A stretch of 64,000 nucleotides of DNA from a virus (lineage: Duplodnaviria > Caudoviricetes): the IMG/VR virus record IMGVR_UViG_651703002_000001, positions 1 through 64,000 of that record; one strand, 5' to 3'. The notes below the pieces were generated by a model that was not told the DNA's origin, searched no databases, and saw only the letters and a program-made list of their open reading frames with translations. The position numbers were made by a program, and so were the translations under genes. Each line of letters begins with the position of its first letter. Position 1 is the first letter of the stretch. Positions 5,549 through 59,975 of this stretch are shown here, one piece after another.

Positions 5549-5568
5549 AATGTGGGGGATTACTCCCC

Positions 5569-5967
5569 CTATTTTTCAATATAATATTCTGCAAAGCTCG
5601 GAGAACCCGTTACTTTAGTAACCAAATACCTCAATCTTCCGTCAGCTAGTTTATCATAGTGACGGAAAAATGTAAACTCACCCATAGGGACAACAATAAA
5701 CATTGGATCGGGGCCAATCATATTTTCATATTCTTGACTGGTGATTTTATAATGGAACCAAGAAATACACGGTTTTGATGTGGTTTTATCATCAACACCA
5801 ATATTAGTTGGTGTTGGTTTGTATCCACGATTAGGCATTCCCCAATCACCACCATTTTTCCAAACGTTTGGATCCCAAAAGTGATTGGGCCAATCTTGAT
5901 ATGATGGGCTGGTATATGGAACTCCAATCGGATCGTTCCACCATTCAAATTGCTTATGCATCGTCAT
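5569..5967 (-). CDS. Hypothetical protein (Trp/Pro-rich N-terminus)
   Basis: 132-aa ORF in operon orientation. Confidence 0.6.
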   Translation of the reverse strand: MTMHKQFEWWNDPIGVPYTSPSYQDWPNHFWDPNVWKNGGDWGMPNRGYKPTPTNIGVDDKTTSKPCISWFHYKITSQEYENMIGPDPMFIVVPMGEFTFFRHYDKLADGRLRYLVTKVTGSPSFAEYYIEK

Positions 5968-23754: not shown

Positions 23755-23794
23755 TCATTATTCCTCATAAAGGGGCTTTCACCCCTAATCTATT

Positions 23795-24169
23795 TTATAC
23801 AGAACAAACCGGAACAGTCTTACCGGTTGTTCGTGGAACATTATATTGCTGTTGTTCTTGAATTTTAATAGCACCCAAAATAATTTCATCGGTTTGCTTT
23901 TTTGAAGTAATCCAGAGACTATGAAGAGTTTCAGAATCCAGAGGACTTTGTTGACAGATATTACGCAATTTCGTAATAGCATATTTATATCCATCTTCAT
24001 TGCAGGAGATTAGACATTCACGGGAATGTGCTGTGAGTCGGTCAATCTCTTTCTTATTCTTTTTATAATGCTTAGAAGCCATTTTATTAATTGCTTGTTT
24101 TTGTACTTCAGAAAGACTCACTTCGTCATTAGCTTTCACATGCATTTGAATTTCTTGATTATCAGTCAT
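23795..24169 (-). CDS. a-gt.4-like conserved protein
   Basis: KKNKKEIDRLTAH...YKYAITKLR similar to T4 a-gt.4; syntenic. Confidence 0.7.
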   Translation of the reverse strand: MTDNQEIQMHVKANDEVSLSEVQKQAINKMASKHYKKNKKEIDRLTAHSRECLISCNEDGYKYAITKLRNICQQSPLDSETLHSLWITSKKQTDEIILGAIKIQEQQQYNVPRTTGKTVPVCSV

Positions 24170-31826: not shown

Positions 31827-31880
31827 TTGGTATAGATTCCTTTAATGCATGAGAATGGGGGATTTTACTCCCCCGTTTAT

Positions 31881-34136
31881 TTATACAGAACAGCCTGCGC
31901 AATCTGCTTCTTTAACCATTTCGATATCAGACTCATTACCATCCCGGGTATTGTGATAATACATCGCCTTCAATCCATATTTCTGAGCAAATACAAGGTC
32001 CTTTAGCATTACACTAACCGGAACTTTGCCAGATTTATAACTTTGAGGAATGTAGCTAGTGTTTACACTGATTCCTTGATCAAAGAATTTCTGAATTACT
32101 GCACATATTGAAAGATAACCAGTCATTCCGTTTTCACGTACCATAGCCCAAAGAGTTTGATATTCATCACTTAGGATATCAACATCAGGAACTAGCTGGT
32201 TAAACGCACCATCTTTTGACGCTTTGGTTGACAGTAGAGCACGAACCGGCTCAACGCCATTAGTTGCATTCAGAAGCTGTGAGCTGCTTTCTGACGGCAT
32301 CTGAGCGGTCAGGGTATCATTACGAAGACCATACTTAAGAATCTCGGTACGAAGCCATTCCCAGTCCTGTTTAAGAACGTTAGGGGTCAACAGATCCACA
32401 TTCTTATTATACCAATCGATAGGCAACAGACCTTTAGACCATTTGGTACGATCATGCCACTCACTCGCACCACGTTCTTTAGCTAGTTCCATAGACGCTC
32501 TAATGTGGGAGAATTGGATAGCTTCAAAATGTTCGTGTACTAGGGCCAACGCTTCCGGACTATTATAATTGACGAAGTTTTTAGCCAAGAAATAAGCTAG
32601 GTTAACAACACCAATACCAAGAGAGCGGCGTTTCTTTGCTTTCTCTGCGGCTTTAACAGGATAATCCTGATAATCCAACAGGTTATCTAGTGCCCGTACA
32701 ATAATACGACTAAGGCGAATATAATCAGAAGTGGTTTTAATCTTACCCAAGTTTATTGCACTCAGAGTACACAGTGCGATTTCTTCATCCTTATCAGCCA
32801 TCGGATTATGTCGGGAAGATTTAATCTCAACACAAAGATTCGTCATTTTAATTGGTTCGATATATGGAGTTTGCTTATTTACGTTATCAACAAACATTGC
32901 ATAAATTCGACCAGTCCCAGCCCGTTCGGTCAACATAGTGGTAAACAAATCGGCGGCTTTAATTCGCTTCTTACGGATAACATGATTCATTTCAAGCTTT
33001 TTATAACGCTCTATAAACTTGGAACTATCCGAATCATAAAAATCTTTATAAAGAAGACCATTATCTATATCCGGACTAAACAGTGTGATATAACCATCTT
33101 CTTTAAGTCTTTCAATAAAGAACTTGTTAATATGTACTGTATAATCAATATTACGAATACGGGTTTCTTCAGTACCTTTATTATTTTTCAATACCAGAAG
33201 CTTTTCAACTTCCAAATGCCACATAGGATAGTTAATATTACCACTACCACCACGAACACCACCTTGGCTACAGCTCTTAACACCGGTAGTAAAATGTTTC
33301 CAGAATGGAATGACCCCAGTGTGGGAAACTTCCCCCGAGCGGATACGAGATCCTTCAGCACGAATAGCACCACCATTAATACCAATACCGGCACGGCGGG
33401 AAATATATTTCATTATCGCTTTTGATGTTTCTCCGATAGATTCAAGAGAGTCACCGGATTCAATTTTAACGCATGAGCTAAATTGACGAGTTGGAGTTCT
33501 TACACCAGAAAGAATTGGTGTCGGTAGAGAAATTTCAAAATTACTAGCGGCATTATAAAAATCGATAACATATTCCAAACGTTTGGAAACGTCTTCTTCT
33601 TGATGAAGACACATAGCTTGTAACATATATGCAAACTGTGGAGTTTCATAAATTGTACCGTTAGAACGGTCTTTTACAAGATATTTTTCTTTATACTGCA
33701 TAGCACCAGCATAAGTGAAATTCATATCTCGGGTGTGATCGATAATACCTTGTAGAATTTCATATTCTTTTTCAGAATATTTATATATCAGATCTCGATC
33801 ATAATGACCACTAGCAACCAAACCTTTAACATGATCATAAATATGTGGGGGGTCGAACTGATTGTATACTTTCTTACGCAAAGCGTACATAGTCAAACGA
33901 CCAGCAACATATTGATAATCCGGCTCATCTACCGATATAAGGTCAACAGCGGCTTTGATAACCAATTTCTGGATATCCTTAGTGCTCATACCTTCCATAA
34001 TAGCGGGTTTTGCTGCTTCAAGAATTGTGTGTGGATCTGCCTCTAACCCTTGACAGGCAAAGTCAACAACTTTGAAAATTTTATCGAATGAAAATTCTTC
34101 GGTTATACCGGACGACTTCAAAACGGTGTTAATCAT
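31881..34136 (-). CDS. nrdA: Aerobic RNR class Ia alpha subunit NrdA
   Basis: ATP cone, TRQFSSC, NLCVEI, ALCTL, YY, C-terminal CAGC. Confidence 0.97.
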   Translation of the reverse strand: MINTVLKSSGITEEFSFDKIFKVVDFACQGLEADPHTILEAAKPAIMEGMSTKDIQKLVIKAAVDLISVDEPDYQYVAGRLTMYALRKKVYNQFDPPHIYDHVKGLVASGHYDRDLIYKYSEKEYEILQGIIDHTRDMNFTYAGAMQYKEKYLVKDRSNGTIYETPQFAYMLQAMCLHQEEDVSKRLEYVIDFYNAASNFEISLPTPILSGVRTPTRQFSSCVKIESGDSLESIGETSKAIMKYISRRAGIGINGGAIRAEGSRIRSGEVSHTGVIPFWKHFTTGVKSCSQGGVRGGSGNINYPMWHLEVEKLLVLKNNKGTEETRIRNIDYTVHINKFFIERLKEDGYITLFSPDIDNGLLYKDFYDSDSSKFIERYKKLEMNHVIRKKRIKAADLFTTMLTERAGTGRIYAMFVDNVNKQTPYIEPIKMTNLCVEIKSSRHNPMADKDEEIALCTLSAINLGKIKTTSDYIRLSRIIVRALDNLLDYQDYPVKAAEKAKKRRSLGIGVVNLAYFLAKNFVNYNSPEALALVHEHFEAIQFSHIRASMELAKERGASEWHDRTKWSKGLLPIDWYNKNVDLLTPNVLKQDWEWLRTEILKYGLRNDTLTAQMPSESSSQLLNATNGVEPVRALLSTKASKDGAFNQLVPDVDILSDEYQTLWAMVRENGMTGYLSICAVIQKFFDQGISVNTSYIPQSYKSGKVPVSVMLKDLVFAQKYGLKAMYYHNTRDGNESDIEMVKEADCAGCSV

Positions 34137-34223: not shown

Positions 34224-35120
34224 ATGATCAATTATGGACACTGGGTAACAGATTGTAAATTTGACCCAAGAGAAGTTTTGGGATTTGTTTACATGATCAC
34301 ATTTAGCAACGGTAAAAAATACATCGGAGCTAAACGAGTATGGAAAAACTTAAAGAGGCCCCCAGCCACATACAAACGACAAGGTAAAACCGAATTCATA
34401 GAATCCGATTGGAGATCTTATCGTAGTAGCAGTAACGAGGTTGTCGAACTTGAAACCCAAGGCATTCAGATTACAGAAATGCGGATTCTGGCACAATACG
34501 ACACATGGGGAAAAGTCCTTCTCTTGGAATGTATGCTTCAATTCTCTTTAAACGCATTGACCTCTGATGTATACCTTAACAAGCAGATTGAAGGTATGTT
34601 TACGGCTTCATGCTTTGATAAAGCGGTATATGACGATGTAGCACGATTAGTTGCTATCGAGCAATACGATGAATCGGTCGCACAGGTGATCGTTTACAGA
34701 GGTGGAGATAGAAGCGTTATATGCGACAAACCCACCGCTAAGGAATATATCAGAGCGGGATGGTCGGTTGCATCTCTACCTAACACGTATCAAAGAGAAA
34801 GTCATCCTATGACACCTTACACAATCAAGTGTAAGGAATCTGGAAAAGAGTATACCATTACAGATTTCAAAAAACAATATGAAATTGCAAATGAAATTGA
34901 ATGTCCTGCTGGGGATTTGAGTCGTCTTCGTTCTGGTGAGATTTTGAACATCGGAACCTATACCATGAAAGATCAACGAGAACCCCAGAAGTGGGTTAAA
35001 GATGGTGTATGTTACTATAATGCAGCCGAAATGAAAGCCGCAAAGGTTGATAAATCTGAATGCGAACACTTCCCAGCCGAAGACAGGGAAGCATATCGGA
35101 TCCGGTTATCCCTTCTATGA
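34224..35120 (+). CDS. Free-standing GIY-YIG (Seg-like) homing endonuclease
   Basis: GFVY...KYIG, ESDWRSY, YLN catalytic-domain pattern; C-terminal NUMOD1/HTH-like segment; divergent from nrdA. Confidence 0.75.
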   Translation: MINYGHWVTDCKFDPREVLGFVYMITFSNGKKYIGAKRVWKNLKRPPATYKRQGKTEFIESDWRSYRSSSNEVVELETQGIQITEMRILAQYDTWGKVLLLECMLQFSLNALTSDVYLNKQIEGMFTASCFDKAVYDDVARLVAIEQYDESVAQVIVYRGGDRSVICDKPTAKEYIRAGWSVASLPNTYQRESHPMTPYTIKCKESGKEYTITDFKKQYEIANEIECPAGDLSRLRSGEILNIGTYTMKDQREPQKWVKDGVCYYNAAEMKAAKVDKSECEHFPAEDREAYRIRLSLL

Positions 35121-35231
35121 TAGAAGGAAATACGCAGCAAAAACCCACTCAAACCAAACGGTAATAAGTTGTGGGTGTACCTTCATAAAGAAGGGTACTA
35201 GAGGTATAGTGATTTTAAATTGTTTTTGCAT
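35115..35231 (-). CDS. Putative 38-aa hydrophobic peptide
   Basis: MQKQFKITIPLVPFFMKVHPQLITVWFEWVFAAYFLLS; AAGG RBS; T4-type early promoter upstream. Confidence 0.45.
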   Translation of the reverse strand: MQKQFKITIPLVPFFMKVHPQLITVWFEWVFAAYFLLS

Positions 35232-35300: not shown

Positions 35301-35408
35301 TCGAACGTAGTGAGACGGCGCAGCCGGTTCGTTTCACTCACATTTCTAATTATAAAGTTTCTATTAATATATTATAGAACTCTATAATTTGATTGCACTT
35401 GAAACTAT
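35301..35408. repeat. Copy 1 of ~110-bp hairpin/palindrome element (inverted repeat of 59265-59376)
   Basis: 39-bp stretch identical to the reverse complement of copy 2, with flanks nearly identical. Confidence 0.9.
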
Positions 35409-35419
35409 CCTACAGACAC

Positions 35420-35452
35420 AAAGAGCCTATCCCGAAATGGATAGGCTCTTTT
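35420..35452. terminator. Terminator after gene 35
   Basis: AAAGAGCCTATCC-CGAAAT-GGATAGGCTCTTTT. Confidence 0.8.
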
Positions 35453-49008: not shown

Positions 49009-49034
49009 CATTCAATATACGGGGGAGTAAAATC
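49006..49034 (+). promoter_or_regulatory. Sigma70-type promoter TTGACA-N17-TAAAAT
   Basis: Perfect -35, 17-bp spacer. Confidence 0.6.
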
Positions 49035-49061
49035 CCCCATACATTCAAAGAGGAATATATT

Positions 49062-58044: not shown

Positions 58045-58848
58045 ATGGCACGTAAAAAAGAAGAAGAACTTAAAGAACTAGATCTGGGTGTAATTAATGA
58101 AATTATAGAAGAAAATAGCGCCCCAGACGCAAAGGTTAAAATTCAAGTTTATGCAAAAGAATGCGGTTTCAAGATCGGTAAATCTAATATTTCGGTTGAT
58201 GATATGGTAGTCAAACTTCTTGAAATGGCTGACGCAAAGGAAAATCAAAAACTAGAATATAGCCCACTAAACAAGATCAAGACTCCCGAGGTATATTCTG
58301 AGGTAAAACAGATTACTCCGGAAGAAGAACTCGAACTGGCAGAAGATATTGAACAATTCGATCCTGTTGTTGAAGAAAAAGAACCGTTCCTCAATCCGGG
58401 GGAGGTAGTATCAATTAATGATATTCCGGAAGATATTAAAACTGAAATTGTTGATGCTATTAAATCTGGTGAGGTTGTCATTACGGCACCGACAAGCCCA
58501 ATTGAAGAGGTGATTACAGGTATTCACTCATATGTTCCTTCATTAGGAACAAGTCCATGGTTTCCACCAGAACAACCAAAAGAAATAGAAATTAATTTTG
58601 AACCTGATCTTTCTGGATTCACTCCACGTATTAACTTGATTGGGGCTGTTGGTCAACAATATATGAACTGTCCTTATTGGATTTTGGATTGGATTTTGGA
58701 AAATGGAAAGGATTGGAAAACTAAAATCGAAACACATCCGAGAGAAACAGATCATCCTATTCTGAAAACTGTTTTATACTATATTCAGATCCATGGTAGT
58801 GTTACTGTTAGGGAAAGTCGAAACTCACGTTACCATACTCTTTATTGA
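58045..58848 (+). CDS. inh: Inh inhibitor of prohead protease
   Basis: C-terminal PYWILDWI...LYYI...GSV.VRESRNS conserved in Inh. Confidence 0.85.
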   Translation: MARKKEEELKELDLGVINEIIEENSAPDAKVKIQVYAKECGFKIGKSNISVDDMVVKLLEMADAKENQKLEYSPLNKIKTPEVYSEVKQITPEEELELAEDIEQFDPVVEEKEPFLNPGEVVSINDIPEDIKTEIVDAIKSGEVVITAPTSPIEEVITGIHSYVPSLGTSPWFPPEQPKEIEINFEPDLSGFTPRINLIGAVGQQYMNCPYWILDWILENGKDWKTKIETHPRETDHPILKTVLYYIQIHGSVTVRESRNSRYHTLY

Positions 58849-58854
58849 TGATTA

Positions 58855-58880
58855 AGCCATCCTTTTTAGGGTGGCTTTTT
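58855..58880 (+). terminator. Terminator after inh
   Basis: AAGCCATCCT-TTTT-AGGGTGGCTTTTT. Confidence 0.75.
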
Positions 58881-58930
58881 AATATCCCTAAATAAAAAGG
58901 CCATATTTGGCTATAACAAGGGTATTAAAA

Positions 58931-59200
58931 ATGAATTATAGATTCATAAAGATTGACAACAATTTTGTATTACTTCTTGGTTATAAAGGTGGGATACAAA
59001 TGATTAGAAAATTGAGGGATGGGATTGTATCTGACAATATCTATGAGTTTATTCGTTTGATAAGCCAGTACCTAGATGATGGGTTTATTGTGATCGTGTA
59101 TGATCTGGAAGAGAATAGATTCATTAAGATAAATGAAGAAAAGATTGATATTTTTTTAATTTTCATTATATCATGTAAAATGATGGTTTATGAACTATAA
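58931..59200 (+). CDS. Hypothetical late protein
   Basis: CCTAAATA at 58887-58894, AAGGG RBS, terminator at 59207-59229. Confidence 0.55.
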   Translation: MNYRFIKIDNNFVLLLGYKGGIQMIRKLRDGIVSDNIYEFIRLISQYLDDGFIVIVYDLEENRFIKINEEKIDIFLIFIISCKMMVYEL

Positions 59201-59206
59201 GTTAAC

Positions 59207-59229
59207 AGGAACCTTTTGGTTCCTTTTTT
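59207..59229 (+). terminator. Terminator preceding repeat copy 2
   Basis: AGGAACC-TTTT-GGTTCCT + T run. Confidence 0.75.
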
Positions 59230-59264
59230 GTATGTATTTTAACCTAATAATGGTTAAAAAGTAT

Positions 59265-59376
59265 ATAGTTTCAAGTGTAATCAAAGTATAAAGTTCTATA
59301 ATATATTAATAGAAACTTTATAATTAGAAAATGTGTGAGTGAAACGAACACGGCTCCGCCGACTCGCTTTGCTCGA
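59265..59376. repeat. Copy 2 of ~110-bp hairpin/palindrome element (inverted relative to 35301-35408)
   Basis: Reverse complement aligns with 35301-35408. Confidence 0.9.
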
Positions 59377-59418
59377 ATCTAGTTTCTGTTATGTATTTAG
59401 ATATGGTATAATTTGGAT

Positions 59419-59975
59419 ATGAAAAGAAAAATTGTAACTCTTATCGGGACACGAGAACCCGAGCCCCAATATATTGATCTTATGATCCGTATTGGTAAAG
59501 CCTTTTCTGATAAAGGGTATTGGTGCAAGGTCTGGTGATGCAATAGGATCTGACCAAAAATTCCTAAAGAACTATGACCCCTAATTATGTATAAAATATC
59601 CGCCTGATGATAGGGCCGGATGTGTAAATGTAATGAATCATAAAAATTATTATGAGTTCGAATTAATAAGCTTCACGATTTCCATGTAGCTTGGGAATTT
59701 ATGATAATTGGTCATCAGGAATTACATGCTAGAAAACGTCCCCAAGTTATGGGTTTGAATCTTGATACATATTCAAATCTAGTTGTGTTCTGTGCAAATG
59801 AAGATAGTAGAGGTGTAGTTTCCGGGAGGTCCTGCAAACGGCGGTTAAACTTTCCAGAAGCCTAAATATACCTACACTAAACATTATGAATCCAGTACAG
59901 AGATCTAAGCTGTGTAAATGGCTTGGAATTGAAGATATACCGATATTCGAAAAGGTTGACATTTTTAATCTCTAA
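59419..59975 (+). CDS. DprA/SLOG-like Rossmann-fold protein (several frameshifts; error or pseudogene)
   Basis: Fragments LIGTRE, RSGDAIGSD, HARNV.QV.G, VSGG..AV..SRSLNIP.LN across frames; TGGTATAAT promoter upstream. Confidence 0.55.

Follow-up and report, generated by a model that had tools for sequence, protein, structure and literature searches.

What role do three small, closely packed hairpins play between genes of a large T4-like phage, and on which nucleic acid do they fold? We addressed this question in a window of 64,000 nucleotides (positions 1–64,000 of IMG/VR record IMGVR_UViG_651703002_000001), which is part of a 235,229-bp record from a T4-like Aeromonas phage. A first-pass annotation, made from the letters alone, had described the hairpins at 59333–59376, claimed a second copy whose stems carry compensatory changes, and proposed that the element acts as folded single-stranded DNA on both strands, conceivably to load helicase/primase in both directions. 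Read directly in the sequence, the three hairpins lie where they had been placed, a second copy lies at 35301–35341 on the opposite strand, and the hairpin sequences given for both copies, including the GNA loops and one AAA loop, match the letters (Table 1). Comparison with related phages indicates that the 59333–59376 stretch is the GC-rich, variable end of a larger noncoding cassette. Well supported is a unit of ~115 bp that joins a 66-nt AT-rich quasi-palindrome to a three-part GC-rich hairpin module; well supported, too, is its location at six syntenic, evenly spaced loci of T4-like Aeromonas phages of the Emmerichvirinae.

Table 1. The two cassette copies of the window, their component parts, and neighboring sequence signals
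Feature	Positions	Strand	Description
66-nt AT-rich quasi-palindromic core, copy 2	59266..59331	+	
Putative leftward −10-like box	59285..59290	-	TATACT on − strand; TATAAT in other copies
Putative rightward −10-like box	59319..59324	+	TATAAT; ~9 nt ahead of first hairpin; read directly in the sequence
5′ arm, copy 2	59333..59351	+	GTGT-GA-GT-GAA-AC-GA-ACAC; two tandem G·A pairs, GAA loop
Central GC hairpin/palindrome, copy 2	59351..59361	.	CGGC-TCC-GCCG on +; CGGC-GGA-GCCG on −
3′ arm, copy 2	59363..59375	-	C-GA-GC-AAA-GC-GA-G; + strand reads CTCGC-TTT-GCTCG; tandem G·A, AAA loop
Putative extended −10-like box	59404..59412	+	TGGTATAAT; read directly in the sequence; 3′ of module, just before decayed DprA-like gene
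Intrinsic-terminator-like hairpin and T-run	59207..59232	+	Ends upstream gene 58907–59200
66-nt AT-rich core, copy 1	35342..35407	-	
5′ arm, copy 1	35327..35341	-	GT-GA-GT-GAA-AC-GA-AC; GAA loop
Central hairpin, copy 1	35316..35326	.	CGGC-GCA-GCCG on +
3′ arm, copy 1	35301..35315	+	C-GA-AC-GTA-GT-GA-G; GTA loop
Terminator-like hairpin	35422..35449	-	Ends 1261-aa tail-fiber connector gene, just upstream of copy 1

Both hairpin copies extend into a 66-nt inverted repeat with 95% identity between 59266–59331 and 35342–35407 (the 66-mer, or core). The window's genome contains seven copies of the 66-mer at six loci, near 35k (−), 59k (+), 102k (a convergent pair 200 nt apart), 136k (−), 174k (−), and 227k (+). 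The same seven are present in avDM6 (Ishigurovirus, Emmerichvirinae), the nearest GenBank relative by blastn, and four to six occur in each of CC2, ZPAH1, AS-zj, Aszh-1, G2, P19, Aswh_1, AsSzw2, and Assk; all 17 phage records matched in blastn are Aeromonas phages. Across genomes we listed 59 copies of the 66-mer, 46 of them with a readable hairpin module, and these 46 reduce to 17 distinct modules. Nine of the 13 excluded copies are damaged, bear Ns at the site, or could not be bounded by our script; the other four make up the convergent pairs found in avDM6 and in the window's genome, where there are other GC hairpins and no G·A arms. In the window's own genome this pair occupies 102152–102352, its two 66-mers facing each other between gp54-like and gp26-like genes with CGCC-TTT-GGCG, CGGGC-AAA-GCCCG, and the palindrome CCGATATCGG between them. 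The arrangement is the same in avDM6, and CC2-type phages carry a single cassette with a normal module there.

Beyond these genomes, a scan for the 27-mer at the left of the core matched CC2, AS-zj, and one 16-kb contig, and an exact scan of IMG/VR for the palindrome of the window's own type gave no match. A metagenome scan returned three true relatives and four matches that share the 27-mer alone; the latter, unrelated contigs (L097–L100) that fit a 25-base degenerate pattern of the left 27-mer and lack the rest of the cassette, may reflect either a wider motif or chance. Metagenomic contigs break at the 66-mer repeat. The assemblies of AS-zj, Aszh-1, and AsSzw2, some of them marked UNVERIFIED, are marred at the very position of cassettes (loci L034, L038, L039, L046, L047, L069, L075, and L080) by Ns, an extended poly-T stretch, or deletions, which suggests that these sites are hard to sequence or assemble.

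The genes that neighbor the cassette are the same at all six loci, and this synteny holds between Ishigurovirus and Ceceduovirus. They comprise a tail-fiber connector gene and a small ORF, inh and a DprA-like gene, gp54 and gp26, and a tRNA-amidotransferase-like gene and the ndd cluster, along with two clusters of unknown genes; no function is common to the genes beside the six cassettes. Around the 235-kb circular map the loci are separated by 24.0, 42.9, 34.3, 37.9, 52.5, and 43.6 kb, a distribution more even than random by minimum gap (P = 0.0087) and by spread (standard deviation; P = 0.0017). A switch of transcription direction is close to only two of the six. The cassette is co-oriented with the genes at four loci, where its module is directed at the next gene, and anti-oriented at two, namely 227k and one member of the 102k pair (81k and 189k in CC2); at the anti-oriented loci the module points away from the genes, and the left −10 box faces the start of the adjacent gene, CC2_215 or gp26. 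Because the module keeps to the same side of the core regardless of gene orientation, the cassette can be regarded as self-contained.

At one of the six loci an indel relative to avDM6 lies at the cassette border. This is the 227k locus (~226,900 in the window's genome), where avDM6 and a metagenomic relative (L096) have ~220 bp more; in avDM6 the extra sequence (L015 1592–1839 versus L003 1468–1497) comes to an end 4 nt away from the 66-mer's left border and includes the start of a small divergent gene, giving a difference in gene content at the border.

The flanks of the two window copies have features of their own. Just 3′ of copy 2, the DprA-like gene (59419–59970) is broken, running through frames 1, 2, 1, and 3 with one in-frame stop, and has 90.6% nucleotide identity to the avDM6 counterpart, which encodes an intact 162-aa protein. 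Some of these breaks may be strain specific or sequencing errors, since single-base indels set related metagenomic contigs apart at 59151 and 59520. Converging on copy 1 is a 298-aa ORF (34224–35120, +) whose PHROG match carries a homing-endonuclease annotation (E = 3e-138), a gene found beside no other cassette copy. A 38-aa hydrophobic ORF (35112–35228, −) follows copy 1 where CC2 has a 39-aa ORF (CC2_274); the interval from module to ORF contains a promoter-like box (GTTTAC, 18 nt, TATGAT or TACTAT) in both phages.

The hairpin modules share one design. A 5′ arm on the top strand is followed by a GC hairpin with a loop of 3–4 nt and by a 3′ arm on the bottom strand, and each arm consists of two Watson-Crick pairs, tandem G·A/A·G, a further two or three pairs, and a short loop. 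The purine-rich strand, the one bearing tandem G·A, is the top one in the 5′ arm and the bottom one in the 3′ arm, a switch seen in each of the 17 distinct modules. A strict parser recovered both arms in 11 modules and a single arm in six, the other arm of these having one mismatch or a 2-nt loop; a G·A hairpin on the wrong strand was found in none of the 17, and the G·A columns of the 5′ arm are invariant across their alignment. Loops vary from 2 to 4 nt and stems from 5 to 7 pairs with pairing kept, and the sequence of the central stem likewise differs between copies (CGGC/GCCG versus CGCC/GGCG) while its pairing is retained. On the G·A strand the loops are mostly GAA or GTA, and many central hairpins read C-GNA-G on one strand. 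Arms of the CC2 and ZPAH1 types contain GCGAAGC or GCGTAGC; in the window's own arms the closing pair is T-A.

Natural flips of the module are found as well. At the DprA locus of ZPAH1 and Aswh_1 the module is the exact reverse complement of the modules that these phages carry elsewhere, and at the ndd-cluster locus the modules of CC2-type phages and Aswh_1 are likewise turned around with respect to the 66-mer. The pseudo-dyad symmetry of the module means that a G·A hairpin on the strand leaving the core comes first whichever way the module is turned. A distant 16-kb IMG/VR contig (L092) has an arm and a GNA hairpin on both sides of its core, forming a perfect inverted repeat. The flips show a module that evidently works in either orientation relative to the 66-mer, and this independence, together with the strand switch of the G·A pairs, would fit folding on both DNA strands better than folding of an RNA from one.

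Are these hairpins maintained as hairpins? The tandem-GA hairpin motif as such is barely enriched genome-wide: a generic pattern (Watson-Crick pairs, tandem GA, Watson-Crick pairs, loop of 3–4 nt) matched the whole genome 39 times, against 27.7 ± 6.4 in 20 Markov-1 simulations. Seven of the 39 matches lie inside five ~45-nt modules that make up ~0.1% of the genome, a clustering that is not independent evidence because the module copies are homologous. A 15-mer common to copies 1 and 2 occurs twice, with 0.15 occurrences expected.

The evidence comes instead from the alignment of the 17 modules, in which two rows are misaligned in the 3′ half and count against the model. Homologs keep the pairing, the opposite of the outcome that the first-pass annotation had named as refuting it: 90.8% of the pairs in the local three-hairpin structure are Watson-Crick or otherwise standard, and both partners vary in 7 of the 12 pairs. 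Covariation scores 0.361 versus 0.138 ± 0.023; since module copies are related and homogenized within genomes, the cells counted here are not independent events. Neither this score nor the fraction paired was reached by any of 500 shuffles, and slid controls were all at most 34% paired. In the 5′ arm, T-A alternates with C-G beside the loop (8 rows versus 9) and G-C with A-T at the outer pair; in the 3′ arm, A-T alternates with G-C. Template-switch repair of quasi-palindromes could mimic such compensation, but it would not preserve G·A mismatches. When the five orthologous modules of avDM6 are set against those of the window's genome, differences fall at 4 of 118 paired, 0 of 40 G·A, and 11 of 61 loop or spacer positions, so that substitutions avoid the stems (Fisher p = 0.0002). 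As judged from these comparisons, the local hairpins are shown to be under selection. A low-depth metagenomic variant of copy 2 (59374 C>T in run X3, depth 6.7) disrupts one G·A pair of the 3′ arm.

Given no structure, RNAalifold recovered the 5′ arm and central hairpin from the top strand; from the bottom strand came only a weak long-range helix, with no 3′ arm. The early proposal of folding on both strands is left with mixed support, favored by the G·A strand switch in 17 of 17 modules and by the either-orientation module and weakened by this missing arm. Nearest-neighbor energies of the arms are 0 to −1.4 kcal/mol with DNA or RNA parameters, and the minimum-energy folds of whole modules are long-range, though Kimoto and Hirao 2026 (PMC13037366), a review, report that nearest-neighbor models fail for DNA mini-hairpins. 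Two long-range folds were rejected. In a pseudoknot (a-a′, b-b′), 0 of 12 arm pairs change on both sides and 81% are paired, a level reached by 59 of 500 shuffles; in a nested long hairpin, 1 of 11 pairs changes on both sides and 71.6% are paired, reached by 105 of 500. Sequence conservation makes both folds possible, and covariation supports neither.

The core adds the second half of the design. From left to right, the 66-mer comprises the conserved 27-mer, a bulged central palindrome, and TATAATTAGAA; the two half-sites of the palindrome have changed together between genera (AGTT..AACT versus ATCT..AGAT). Its AT-rich part surrounds the −10 boxes, and the GC-rich module lies 3′ of TATAAT. A scan of 58800–59700 found no sigma-70 −35/−10 pair within 59266–59331 on the + strand. 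From the −10 boxes and the gene starts that they face, we infer that the 66-mer may act as a promoter. AsiA is encoded in the window's genome. Pfam domains of MotA gave no match, a silence shared by the controls from which absence is not to be inferred, and no sequence resembling a MotA box was seen.

Stable positions, fixed polarity, even spacing, hairpins on both strands, and tolerance of flips argue for a self-contained element that would act on separated strands, and the cassette probably works where the two strands of DNA come apart. A transcription start in the AT-rich core, or melting of the core, would separate the strands; the G·A/GNA mini-hairpins would then fold on the freed strands and keep the region open, where they could mark or stabilize a single-stranded entry point for replication proteins. 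The reading that we favor, tentatively, is that the cassette may be a promoter-coupled initiation site on melted DNA, by analogy with the T4 R-loop origins oriF and oriG. More doubtful is the extension that the six cassettes would serve Emmerichvirinae phages as origins of replication or as sites of another sort at which replication or clamp proteins load, with a bidirectional promoter core that would melt and let mini-hairpins fold on opposite strands.

T4 provides the closest precedent for such a site. According to Kreuzer and Brister 2010 (PMC3016281), oriF (in uvsY) and oriG (in 34) each combine a promoter with a ~100-bp unwinding element, T4 has at least five dispersed origins that have no common motif, and the firing of most of them is not yet understood. 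The likeness would lie in dispersed, promoter-based units of ~100 bp that need a phage factor and act through strand separation. The differences are these: the T4 origins have no sequence motif in common, whereas copies of the Aeromonas cassette are near-identical; they use a middle-mode promoter, with a MotA box at −30 and a −10, whereas no MotA was detected here (in domain searches whose controls were silent); and their promoter is followed by an A+T-rich unwinding element, where the cassette instead has GC-rich hairpins.

For the hairpins, the precedent is in smaller replicons. The review cited above (PMC13037366) bears out the background first offered for the motif, that GNA mini-hairpins occur at the G4 origin, RSF1010 ssiA, and N4 promoters, and reports that GCGNAGC mini-hairpins are found at priming or initiation sites and bind SSB poorly. 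The modules resemble these signals in GNA triloops closed by C-G and in sheared G·A pairs. CC2- and ZPAH1-type arms have the two G-C pairs closing a GNA loop that define GCGNAGC there, and the signals of RSF1010 ssiA and ssiB likewise lie on opposite strands, an arrangement that the Aeromonas modules appear to reproduce. The Aeromonas hairpins differ in having an extra internal tandem G·A, and the known signals belong to single-stranded DNA phages, plasmids, or a dedicated polymerase or primase, whereas the present genome is T4-like, double-stranded, and 235 kb long.

Because the stretch first annotated is the tail of a six-locus cassette with promoter boxes, a transcription-coupled or RNA role is a serious rival. 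The rightward −10 box could drive a transcript beginning with the 45-nt module, a small RNA or 5′ leader in which the G·A and GC hairpins would control stability, processing, or translation; since the module is strand-symmetric, either orientation would give the same kind of RNA. We consider this possible, if doubtful. The position of TATAAT ahead of the first hairpin is as expected, a ribosome-binding site and ATG directly follow the module at the 174k locus and in copies of ZPAH1, Aswh_1, Assk, G2, and P19, where it would be a 5′ leader, and in CC2-type phages the module at gp54|gp26 is followed ~20 nt later by a terminator, which would yield an RNA of ~80 nt. Tandem G·A pairs are stable in RNA too, and the 5′ arm and central hairpin recovered by RNAalifold are on the transcribed-sense strand. 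The 3′ arm, however, covaries as a local hairpin and yet has U·C/C·U mismatches in the RNA sense, its G·A pairs and GNA loops being on the opposite strand. At the two anti-oriented loci the module is in no gene's leader, and at 35k and 59k a separate promoter-like box stands between module and gene. The RNA energy of the arms is ~0, and Rfam gave no match in the window at gathering score, the best at 59200–59450 (E = 0.3) being far below threshold.

Somewhat less likely is that the cassette belongs with the promoter-early stem-loop (PeSL) cassettes of T4-type phages (Arbiol 2010, PMC2839356; Comeau 2014, PMC4122927), that is, a portable terminator/promoter unit kept alike by gene conversion that chiefly causes gene shuffling, its hairpins serving as attenuators or as insulators against read-through from either side. 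PeSLs are, like the Aeromonas cassette, repeated intergenic units of T4-like phages with stem-loops, an AT-rich stretch, and promoter-like boxes whose copies are alike within a genome; the copies studied here are intergenic, homogenized within genomes, and different in concert between genera. Terminator hairpins lie just upstream at 59k and 35k, and the two anti-oriented loci, read along the genes, give the order stem-loops, AT-rich promoter, gene. The ~220-bp indel next to the core at 227k adds a further likeness, but it is the only border indel among six loci, and six loci that are all syntenic across two genera speak of stability rather than shuffling; PeSLs number dozens of copies, in hyperplastic regions. 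PeSLs have sigma-70-like −35/−10 elements (N17) with the stem-loop upstream. The Aeromonas cassette has no −35 in our scan, its quasi-palindrome bears −10-like boxes on both strands, and its hairpins keep to one fixed side with invariant tandem G·A on opposite strands; in PeSL order, the upstream terminators at 59k and 35k are unrelated, and the conserved module is on the other side of the core. No U-run follows any module hairpin, and attenuation needs neither invariant G·A pairs nor strand-specific GNA loops. Elsewhere in the window, intergenic G4-5-loop-C4-5 stem-loops in both orientations (5550–5580, 23772–23806, 31855–31892, and 49010–49040; repeats D8, I9, and I24) resemble the polyG/polyC stem-loops described for PeSLs.

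Two further readings seem to us improbable. One is that a polymerase or primase reads the hairpins directly as a start signal, as with N4 virion RNA polymerase promoters or RSF1010 ssiA/ssiB. The form fits, with stems of 4–7 bp and 3-nt GNA loops on opposite strands like ssiA and ssiB, and on its − strand the central hairpin of copy 2 contains the GGA-loop mini-hairpin sequence named for the N4 promoter in PMC13037366. Against this, neither loop nor stem sequence of the central hairpin is conserved between copies. T4-type phages are not known to use a hairpin-reading polymerase or primase.

The other, of similarly low probability, holds that no hairpin forms and that the arms and AT palindrome are operators in double-stranded DNA for dimeric phage or host proteins. 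The strong conservation of the left 27-mer and the joint change of the palindrome's half-sites between genera, as with a coevolving dimeric binder, suit the core. In each arm the two half-sites mirror each other apart from GA, which every module carries on one and the same strand in the two halves, an asymmetry unsuited to a dimer. Half-site spacing varies from 8 to 11 nt and central stems vary freely with pairing kept; such variation in stem and loop length under maintained pairing would argue against a double-stranded site of fixed spacing.

Three other identities were rejected: a mobile element (IS200/IS605-like ends or a MITE), as the six loci are syntenic across genera with no transposase nearby; a mimic of CRISPR repeats, as the central stem sequence differs between copies; and a hammerhead-like core, suggested by the GA-stem-GA layout, as the 5′ conserved core of the consensus is absent.

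We found no description of this repeat family in literature searches or in term look-ups in two genome papers on these phages (PMC12771599 and PMC6043867). PeSL-like cassettes, R-loop origins, and DNA mini-hairpins are known ingredients whose arrangement here we did not find described. The cassettes matter in practice for annotation, several GenBank assemblies being damaged exactly there. As a compact candidate the family offers a fixed architecture with invariant G·A pairs and covarying stems, six evenly spaced loci, and natural flips. Were the module to act as RNA, it would be a structured phage RNA not yet described, with a strand symmetry that is rare. If the cassettes are origins, they would represent the first sequence-defined motif common to all origins of a T4-like phage, with single-stranded DNA hairpin signals in use within a large double-stranded genome; and if the module folds as DNA, mini-hairpin start signals would extend from single-stranded DNA phages and plasmids to large double-stranded DNA phages.
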